A stretch of 64,000 nucleotides of DNA, from the sequence record OZ035795.1; one strand, given 5' to 3'. Shown here one piece after another: positions 14,410 to 16,691 of this stretch (positions are counted from its first letter, which is position 1; each line of letters starts with the position of its first letter). Made by a program: the position numbers and the translations under genes. The notes under the pieces were generated by a model, which was not told the DNA's origin, did not search any database, and saw nothing but the letters and a program-made list of their open reading frames with translations. Origin of the DNA: Krischvirus LF73P4.

Positions 14410-14441
14410 AAAAACAAAAAAGCCACCCCGAAGGATGGCTG
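14410..14441 (-). terminator. rho-independent terminator after hoc
   Basis: AGCCACC-loop-GGATGGCT stem with A-run on plus. Confidence 0.55.
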
Positions 14442-14451
14442 ATAGATTTCA

Positions 14452-15666
14452 TTAAGCAGGATGCGTTTCACGAATGCGTAGAACTCGCTCTAACGTATCT
14501 CGGTCCAGTTTATGTAACTCTTTGGAATGATACATGAAACCATTGCGAGATTCCATGCAAGTGCAATCACTATATTTTTCTTCCGCTGCCGCGATTGTCT
14601 CCAGATCTTTGGCGTACTTGCTGGTAGAATAAACTTCTCGGTCACGCCACTCTAACCCAGCCTCATTGAATTTAACAATCTCGTCAAATACCCACCATCC
14701 AATGTAGATAAATGAAGTTTTGCGCCACGGGATCGGGTGTACGTAACGAAACATTTTAACAACTTCCATTGAACATTTTCTACTTGTACTTGTTGCAACT
14801 TCTACTGTTTCATCTTCGATCTGTTGATATAGTTTAGCAACACACCAGAATTTGGCTGTGTCATCGTAAGTAGCACTCTCTTTGAACAGATGACCGTCTG
14901 GAGTGATAGAAAATCCTTCCAGTGCTTCGCCGTCCTCACTACCGATTAGAGTCGGTGACAGTTGCCCTTCGCGCTGCAAATACCAGTTATGTTTGATCGT
15001 CAATTCAGGCATACCGCTAGAATCGCCTACAATGTCCTCTGACACGACATAATTAAGTAAGATCTCATTACCTAGTGCCACGGTCTTTGATTCCACTACA
15101 TCCTGATCTACGTTCATTGTTGCCAGCATGATTTTAGTCGATGCGCTATCGGCTGAATCTTCCGACTCACCCCACACTTTTACAGTATACACGCCGTTTT
15201 TATCTGCTGTAAATTTTTGGATCGTAATATCCTGTGTTGTGTCTATAACGTCTTCGCCCTTACTCCAACTATAATGTAGTTCATAGTTGTCTGCTGGAGT
15301 CTTCCCACCAGAAAATTTTACTGTTGCATGTAATTCTACGTCTGTTTGTGATGATACGTAGAAATGCTGCGGTTCGGTGATATTTACGATTAATTCAGCT
15401 TCTTCCATGAGGAAAACTTCAGATTCTACTGATTCCATCGTATCGGTATCCTGTACCGTTACTTTATAGCTACCCGCATTTTCACTTGTTGCACCTACTA
15501 CAGATAGCGTAGCTGTGCTATTTTCATGTGGTTGGTCGTCTTTTGTCCATGTATATGTCAAATTGCTGGGTAATGGTTCGTCACCCGATACAGTCGCCGT
15601 TAAGGTGAAACCATCGCCAGCAAGAAAACATCTTTTGTCAGATTTAATTGATACTGTGAAAGCCAT
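14452..15666 (-). CDS. hoc: Hoc outer capsid decoration protein
   Basis: 404 aa; Ig-like N-terminal repeats; C-terminus YVHPIPW..IGWWVFDEI matches recalled T4 Hoc capsid-binding region. Confidence 0.88.
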   Translation of the reverse strand: MAFTVSIKSDKRCFLAGDGFTLTATVSGDEPLPSNLTYTWTKDDQPHENSTATLSVVGATSENAGSYKVTVQDTDTMESVESEVFLMEEAELIVNITEPQHFYVSSQTDVELHATVKFSGGKTPADNYELHYSWSKGEDVIDTTQDITIQKFTADKNGVYTVKVWGESEDSADSASTKIMLATMNVDQDVVESKTVALGNEILLNYVVSEDIVGDSSGMPELTIKHNWYLQREGQLSPTLIGSEDGEALEGFSITPDGHLFKESATYDDTAKFWCVAKLYQQIEDETVEVATSTSRKCSMEVVKMFRYVHPIPWRKTSFIYIGWWVFDEIVKFNEAGLEWRDREVYSTSKYAKDLETIAAAEEKYSDCTCMESRNGFMYHSKELHKLDRDTLERVLRIRETHPA

Positions 15667-15835
15667 ATAAAGCCACTCCCATAGAAAATCCGAATTTAAT
15701 TAATTGAAATAGTTGATTGCCATCAACCAGATAACCATTGCGAGATTCCAATACATGAGTATTAGAATAGTGATGCAACGAGGCCGAAATAGTATCGATC
15801 TCGTCTGGGTATTTGTTCTGTTTGATGTAATACAT
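15644..15835 (-). pseudogene. ORF carrying a Hoc C-terminal-like fragment, possible duplication remnant
   Basis: Contains ESRNGY, as in Hoc ESRNGF; no RBS in this frame; GAGGA RBS serves a different, 29-codon frame. Confidence 0.25.
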
Positions 15836-15931
15836 TGATTTTGTTAGACATGTAGTATCCTCTTTTTAATTGCATAACGGAACTACAATTAAAATTATAA
15901 CAAATATTTCACAACTTTTATCACCCAAAAA

Positions 15932-16657
15932 TTACTTGAGTATGTGGAATTGGCTATGTTTAGTCTCTCGCACCTTGACAGACCCATCGCGTTTGATATA
16001 ATAGATCAGTGACTTGAGGGTGTCGTGTACATACGCGTGCGGGAAACGCTCTGGATACTTCTTCCAATCTGGAGTATTAACGATCCAGTCGAAAATCCAC
16101 CACGGGCAGGAGTAGTAACCACGACCGCCACCGATCAAGCAAATGGTCGGACGGAAGCCAGTAAGATCGCAAAATGAATCAGTGTCATGTGCTGGGGAAC
16201 GATGCTCTGCTTCGTTAGAGAAAATGTTGGCTACCGGAGATTCCACTTTAACTTCCAGTGCTTCTTCAACATCTGACTTAACTTCTTCGACCACTGGTTC
16301 AACTGCTGGAGATTCTTCTTTTGTTTCTTCAATGACGATCTCAGGTTCTTTCATTGCTTCAACCAGAGACGGATCAACTTCGTCGAATACCACTTTATCA
16401 TCTGCGGTGTCTGCTGCCAGAATAAGATCGTTAATACTGGTTCCTTCTGCCGGAGTTTCTTCTTCCATTTCGGAAGCCAGTTTAGTTAATTCGGTTTCTA
16501 CGAACTCGATCATGTTCTCTAACGAGAGCGTCTTTTTGACCTTAATATCAAATTGTTTTGCGTAGTCCGCTAATTCTGTTTTAGCGGCTTTCTGTGCTTC
16601 TTTGTCGTCGGACTCCGCAATAGCGCGGAGTTCTCCGAAATATTCTTTATCAAACAT
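15932..16657 (-). CDS. Hoc-paralogous protein: acidic N-terminus plus Hoc-like C-terminal domain
   Basis: C-terminal PWWIFDWIV and DTL..VRETKH align with Hoc GWWVFDEIV and DTLERV..IRETH; sits where T4 has inh. Confidence 0.55.
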   Translation of the reverse strand: MFDKEYFGELRAIAESDDKEAQKAAKTELADYAKQFDIKVKKTLSLENMIEFVETELTKLASEMEEETPAEGTSINDLILAADTADDKVVFDEVDPSLVEAMKEPEIVIEETKEESPAVEPVVEEVKSDVEEALEVKVESPVANIFSNEAEHRSPAHDTDSFCDLTGFRPTICLIGGGRGYYSCPWWIFDWIVNTPDWKKYPERFPHAYVHDTLKSLIYYIKRDGSVKVRETKHSQFHILK

Positions 16658-16683: not shown

Positions 16684-16691
16684 TATAAATA
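16684..16691 (+). promoter_or_regulatory. T4-type late promoter TATAAATA
   Basis: Exact match upstream of uvsW. Confidence 0.5.

Follow-up and report, generated by a model that had tools for sequence, protein, structure and literature searches.

Evidence for homology between the C-terminal domain of Inh and the Hoc capsid-binding domain in Krischvirus LF73P4, and a relic of a second hoc gene between inh and hoc

The 241-aa protein encoded upstream of hoc in Krischvirus LF73P4 is an old modular protein, in which a disordered acidic linker joins a helical N-terminal domain to a Hoc-type anchor. We consider the gene to be the orthologue of T4 inh, its C-terminal domain to be related to the capsid-binding domain of Hoc, the short ORF between inh and hoc to be what is left of a deleted gene, hoc2, and Inh to be a candidate for docking on the capsid. 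As a whole, this reading is given a probability of about 0.7. Its parts differ in strength and are graded below.

Identity and domain layout of Inh

The source phage is a Krischvirus, a T4-type coliphage of the RB49/GEC-3S-like kind; the window analyzed is a stretch of 64,000 nucleotides. Judged from its sequence and position, the 241-aa ORF (15932–16657, minus strand) is almost certainly orthologous to T4 Inh, a gene also named lip or hoc.1, with PHROG, Pfam and synteny in agreement. The protein matched phrog_1051 with an E-value of 6.9e-75, residues 1–241 corresponding to profile positions 1–229 of 229. Precomputed matches, from which the Pfam names of the domains were taken, record PF26097 (Phage_Inh_N) and PF26098 (Phage_Inh_C) for the exact 241-aa protein. 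Identity to T4-type Inh is 41.7% overall and 51% between C-terminal domains. Matches to Inh were found in 1422 phage records, which reach beyond T4 to phages of Aeromonas, Acinetobacter and Klebsiella; the annotated function is "minor head protein, inhibitor of prohead protease". In the LF73P4 ORF map inh is placed between uvsW and hoc, transcribed away from uvsW and with hoc downstream. The uvsW-inh-hoc order is also present in T4_ev151, KARL-1, 44RR2.8t, JD18, STML-198 and Bp7.

An AlphaFold2 (AF2) model divides Inh into three parts. The N-terminal domain (residues 1–66; 16460–16657, minus strand) contains helices at residues 4–15, 19–34 and 46–66 with pLDDT of 89–98, and its consensus among 86 representatives is ..KEAK..L..YA..FGIKL.K..SFDNM... 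In the BFVD, proteins of phages FV3, V18, H101 and phiAS5 are named "Inh N-terminal domain-containing". The linker (residues 67–160; 16178–16459, minus strand; pLDDT 54–75) comprises 94 residues with a pI of 4.05 and 28 Asp/Glu against 6 Lys/Arg. It is little conserved and varies in length, with proteins of the family spanning 120–280 aa. The C-terminal domain (residues 161–241; 15935–16177, minus strand), the Hoc capsid-binding-domain homologue, is modeled with pLDDT of 96–98. The preliminary description of the locus had called the N-terminal two-thirds of the protein acidic and of low complexity; this holds for residues 67–160, which are acidic and disordered, but not for residues 1–66, a folded helical domain with pLDDT of about 97. 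T4 Inh has this three-part layout too, and its gene likewise sits between uvsW and hoc; the single distinguishing feature of the LF73P4 protein is a loop with the sequence E-T-K-H-S where the T4 Inh family has E-[ST]-R-N-S.

No Ig or PKD Pfam domains were found in the 241-aa protein, whereas LF73P4 hoc has several, and the AF2 model of Inh consists of helices and disorder without a beta-sandwich. Since Ig/PKD domains are absent, Inh is not to be classed as Hoc. The idea that Inh is a decoy substrate of gp21 was dropped for want of any real enrichment of [LI]-x-E sites: LF73P4 Inh contains 3 such motifs where shuffled sequences predict 4.1, and the average over 85 Inh representatives is 4.95 against 3.73 (mean z 0.7).

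The inh-hoc transcription unit

The hoc gene occupies positions 14452–15666 of the minus strand and matched phrog_1149 with an E-value of 1.6e-82. Hoc residues 1–304 match RB49 Hoc (PDB 3shs, E 2e-189), and residues 296–384 match residues 281–367 of T4 Hoc. The unit formed by inh, the hoc2 relic and hoc is closed by a predicted intrinsic terminator at 14421–14440 (minus strand), an 8-bp stem that includes 5 G-C pairs and precedes TTTTTGTTTT; the GEC-3S annotation has a terminator at the equivalent place. A minus-strand search of the regions upstream of inh and hoc gave no exact T4 late-promoter motif TATAAATA; the sole nearby copy is at 16684 on the plus strand, facing uvsW.

Homology of the Inh C-terminal domain to the Hoc anchor

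The C-terminal domain of Inh is very probably homologous to the capsid-binding domain, or anchor, of Hoc. With hhalign, an alignment of 10 Inh C-termini matched an alignment of 8 Hoc binding domains over 76 columns with a probability of 97.4% and an E-value of 1.2e-11. When 86 Inh sequences were used the probability rose to 97.7% (E 2.3e-12); the aligned span was 72–76 columns. Controls were clean, with a best probability of 14.5% among 30 column-shuffled alignments and 0.1% for a reversed alignment. Hoc proteins were also matched in HMM searches, and Phage_Inh_C (PF26098) is recorded on three Hoc proteins of Aeromonas phages (P0235, P0236 and P0250).

The likeness is much harder to see within one genome. 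BLASTP of Inh against Hoc of LF73P4 returned only the segment WWIFDWIV/WWVFDEIV, with 6 of 8 positions identical and an E-value of 0.057, and a search of the 591 ORFs of the window with an HMM of the Inh C-terminal domain placed LF73P4 Hoc at E 0.14. A phmmer search with a single Inh C-terminal sequence against 1.84 billion representatives yielded 87 clusters, all of Inh architecture and none of Hoc; the Inh-Hoc link therefore requires profiles or structure. A sequence search with Inh against the PDB gave no match below E 0.3. Thus, the resemblance is not significant alone within a single genome and is far beyond chance at the level of families.

Structure comparison led to the same relative. 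The best PDB match found by Foldseek with the model of the Inh C-terminal domain was a chain of the Hoc capsid-binding domain (probability 0.87), and in an independent structural search the Hoc C-terminal domain ranked first among 48,164 chains. Structural matches in the BFVD included about 15 Hoc proteins with probabilities of about 1.0. The Inh domain folds into a four-stranded sheet against which three helices pack, as does the Hoc anchor (T4 Hoc residues 281–376, PDB 8T1X, PMC10385173), to which it is about 18–20% identical. We conclude that the two domains form one fold family. Fokine et al. 2023 (PMC10385173) reported that the PDB contained no structural relative of this anchor.

The 8-residue pairwise match could be taken to mean that the resemblance arose by chance or by convergence on a small Trp-rich motif. 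We find this scarcely credible in view of a profile-profile match extending over 72–76 columns at a probability above 97% with clean controls, the top rank of the Hoc domain in the independent structural search, and the fact that the Pfam Inh_C model itself matches some Hoc proteins.

The similarity of the 241-aa C-terminus to the capsid-binding region of Hoc, as proposed in the preliminary description, is thus borne out by both profile comparison and structure search. One of the pairings given there, VRETKH with IRETH, is out of register. Inh V-R-E-T-K-H (229–234) aligns with Hoc C-M-E-S-R-N (370–375), the MESRNG loop being its true partner, and IRETH is the extreme C-terminus of RB49-type Hoc. 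It had also been suggested that ordinary conservation among Inh proteins, with no relationship to Hoc, might explain the similarity. Such conservation is indeed observed, but the absence of a Hoc relationship is not; both facts coexist.

Residues that contact gp23* in Hoc

The positions that are best conserved in both the Inh and Hoc families touch gp23* in the T4 Hoc structure. In T4 Hoc they are W309 and W310, which start helix 1, D313, which holds a loop, and E355–G359, the loop located on the capsomer axis. LF73P4 Inh carries W186, W187 and D190 at the positions of W309, W310 and D313, and the corresponding columns of the Inh family contain Tyr (47%) or Trp (41%), Trp (97%) and Asp (72%). 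Among other columns of the Inh family, conservation is 97% for W187, 100% for W198, 95% for R230 and 97% for E231, with 91% for the loop Asn and 94% for the loop Ser. In the Hoc family W310 (100%), W325 (98%) and the E, S, R and G of the loop (100% each) stand out. The axial loop of the Inh family, E (97%)-T (60%) or S (36%)-R (89%)-N (91%)-S (94%), closely matches E-S-R-N-G of Hoc. Of 120 Krischvirus Inh proteins, 119, among them that of LF73P4, have E-T-K-H-S as the loop; LF73P4 Inh therefore strictly retains two of the five Hoc loop positions.

Half of the Hoc interface shows no conservation in Inh. The strand-1 contacts Y293 and H295 and the contact R300 of Hoc are absent from Inh, being aligned with T171, C173 and G177. 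In the strand-1 region the Inh family conserves P170, L174 and G176, with ..L-I-G where Hoc has Y-V-H-P. The domains also differ in charge: the Inh C-terminal domain is basic (pI 9.3), and that of T4 Hoc has a pI of 5.1.

A relic of hoc2 between inh and hoc

A 63-aa ORF (15644–15835, minus strand) carrying the sequence ESRNGY lies between inh and hoc. Its likeness to Hoc, pointed out in the preliminary description, was confirmed: it is 36% identical to Hoc over 39 aa (E 2e-8) and matched the Hoc profile phrog_1149 at E 2.9e-6. In all probability, comparison with related genomes indicates, the ORF is an out-of-frame 3′ relic of hoc2. Phages UPWr_E1 and JK32 and contig L012 have an undamaged copy of the latter gene at this site, flanked by inh and hoc. 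The intact, Ig-rich ORF is listed as 855 aa and is 847 aa long when counted from the ATG preceded by a Shine-Dalgarno sequence at L012 position 74.

Both ends of hoc2 are recognizable in LF73P4. The 5′ stub (15816–15867, minus strand) comprises the Shine-Dalgarno sequence AAAGAGGA, an ATG at 15851 and the first 12 codons (MSNKINVLHQTE), with the first 36 nt from the ATG identical to intact hoc2 of L012. The 3′ relic (15704–15815, minus strand) comprises the last 36 codons of the capsid-binding domain (KYPDEIDTISASLHHYSNTHVLESRNGYLVDGNQLF), 33 of the 36 encoded residues being identical to L012 hoc2, followed by the former stop codon. This codon, TAA in L012, is CAA in LF73P4 (15704–15706). The deletion junction is at 15815/15816. 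The segment corresponding to L012 positions 110–2505, 2396 nt, is missing from LF73P4, and the frame is therefore shifted: past the junction the 5′ frame of hoc2 continues as a 29-aa junk ORF (15762–15851), and the 63-aa frame is open as a result of the deletion and the loss of the hoc2 stop. The 63-aa ORF begins at an ATG 16 nt into the hoc2 5′ stub and in a different frame; it lacks its own ribosome-binding site and shares 23 nt with the start of hoc.

A working small gene, for example one for a half-anchor mini-protein that would modulate Hoc binding, might be suggested by the frame remaining open in LF73P4, by the retained ESRNGY and by the existence of a PHROG for this ORF (phrog_32100, E 8e-49). 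Several features make such a gene very improbable. No ribosome-binding site serves the ORF, and the strong one upstream serves the other frame; strands 1 and 2 and helix 1 of the binding domain are missing; and the tail of the product is a read-through over the lost stop into the start of hoc. Moreover, the frame is cut by a TAG at codon 6 in MIZ6, and in GEC-3S and L011 it is closed by a TAG immediately before the relic part. Comparison of the relic with intact hoc2 gave an omega of 0.27, which is uninformative with 36 shared codons and 6 substitutions. An additional 75 nt in GEC-3S (..VYGSVGHPLLLKIVVSTADFIAE..) was considered as a decayed first half of the binding domain. This was rejected upon comparison with L012, in which the same stretch opens the first Ig-like domain of hoc2.

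We conclude that hoc2, a gene of 847 codons with many Ig-like domains, was gutted by nested deletions. The relic is a case of ordinary gene decay, and the plasticity of this locus was already known.

These data also bear on the origin of inh. The preliminary description had envisaged a tandem duplication of hoc in which one copy, the 241-aa gene, acquired an acidic display domain in place of its Ig domains. Such a recent event in LF73P4 would be in keeping with the adjacency of inh and hoc, with the domain common to both, and with the occurrence of tandem hoc copies in Krischvirus. It is nevertheless hardly tenable: the recent form of the proposal is refuted by the full-length orthology of the 241-aa gene to Inh of T4 and to Inh in over 1400 further phage records, and within LF73P4 the kinship of the two C-terminal domains is barely recognizable (E 0.057 and 0.14). 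A duplicate did exist at the locus, but it was hoc2 and not the 241-aa gene. Likewise, Ig domains are indeed missing from Inh, their place being taken by a helical domain plus an acidic linker, but this did not come about by a swap in LF73P4. Inh is not a recent duplicate of hoc; as it is conserved from T4 to Klebsiella phages, its link to Hoc is ancient and family-wide.

Discussion

In record annotations and the older T4 literature, Inh is an inhibitor of the prohead protease gp21 that is present in heads. The homology described above suggests, at roughly even odds, that Inh docks at the center of gp23 hexamers. Its C-terminal domain would bind the outer face of the hexamers at or near the Hoc site, and the acidic linker and N-terminal domain would project outward from the shell. 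Inh might then compete with Hoc for the ~155 hexamer sites, or be a forerunner that occupies them first. Docking on hexamers would explain the old label "minor capsid protein". The E-T-K-H-S loop of Krischvirus Inh may mean that binding is weaker, or aimed at another state or partner.

Several observations do not sit well with such docking. The protease inhibited by Inh acts inside the prohead, and the benefit of an outer anchor is not obvious. Hoc is present at about 1 copy per hexamer, leaving little space for a second occupant. Inh has not kept the strand-1 and R300 contacts of Hoc, and its domain is basic where that of T4 Hoc is acidic. The last two features would also fit a C-terminal domain that derives from the Hoc anchor or its ancestor and now does another job, on the lattice of the unexpanded prohead, on the inner surface, or on a core protein, for example gp21 or gp22, so that the inhibitor is brought to the protease's site of action. 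The annotation of Inh as a protease inhibitor agrees with this, as does the fact that Hoc does not fit the unexpanded hexamer, so that a variant Inh interface could be tuned to the unexpanded state. A changed partner is, on the other hand, hard to reconcile with the finding that Inh is strictest at precisely the WW pair and axial loop through which Hoc contacts gp23*. We regard a different job as possible, though rather unlikely.

Docking on gp23 hexamers can be taken further, to a more speculative and still less probable proposal, in which Inh is a second, near-universal occupant of the capsomer-center site, an early binder that is largely displaced by Hoc. Its anchor, with the axial loop and WW pair kept and a different strand-1 edge, would bind gp23 hexamers when Hoc cannot, for example in the unexpanded prohead, with the N-terminal domain tethered on a long acidic leash. 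After expansion Hoc would displace most of the Inh, and the leftover copies would be the "minor capsid protein".

Reuse of the Hoc anchor with other cargo is seen in the short Hoc of Muldoon, the PG7 lipase, RB16 Hoc and hoc2 of Krischviruses JK32 and UPWr_E1. In phage PG7 the anchor is joined to a GDSL lipase (PMC10385173), and in RB16 Hoc it is N-terminal. A single phage encodes several such proteins, with the anchor at either end and varied cargo. Inh fits among them as a case of non-Ig cargo: where the anchor of Hoc carries a string of Ig-like domains, that of Inh is joined through a disordered acidic linker to a helical domain. It differs from them in that they are detected by BLAST with the Hoc C-terminal domain and Inh is not, and in being conserved far more widely. 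T5 pb10 (PMC5292684) is a hexamer-center decoration protein with a capsid-binding domain and an Ig-like domain. It is cited as an analogue only, with no homology claimed, in which an anchor at the hexamer center displays a second module.

In the literature collection searched, no paper was found that connects Inh with Hoc or deals with capsid binding by Inh. Inh is not mentioned in the T4 head reviews PMC3012670 and PMC9958956 (zero occurrences) or in the Hoc structure paper PMC10385173. Because Phage_Inh_C is already recorded on some Hoc proteins of Aeromonas phages, what we describe is an overlooked connection rather than a new type of system.

A Hoc anchor on Inh provides a concrete and cheaply testable idea of where Inh is located and of the origin of its "capsid protein" label, and extends the range of cargo carried by the anchor past Ig fibers and lipase. 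It also calls for caution with hoc-deleted T4 display particles, which may lack empty hexamer centers. Should Inh be a near-universal early occupant of the capsomer center, a single ancient capsid-docking module would have specialized in two ways, as the anchor of Hoc and as that of Inh, and the "empty" sites of the hoc-minus heads employed in antigen display would be taken up by Inh.

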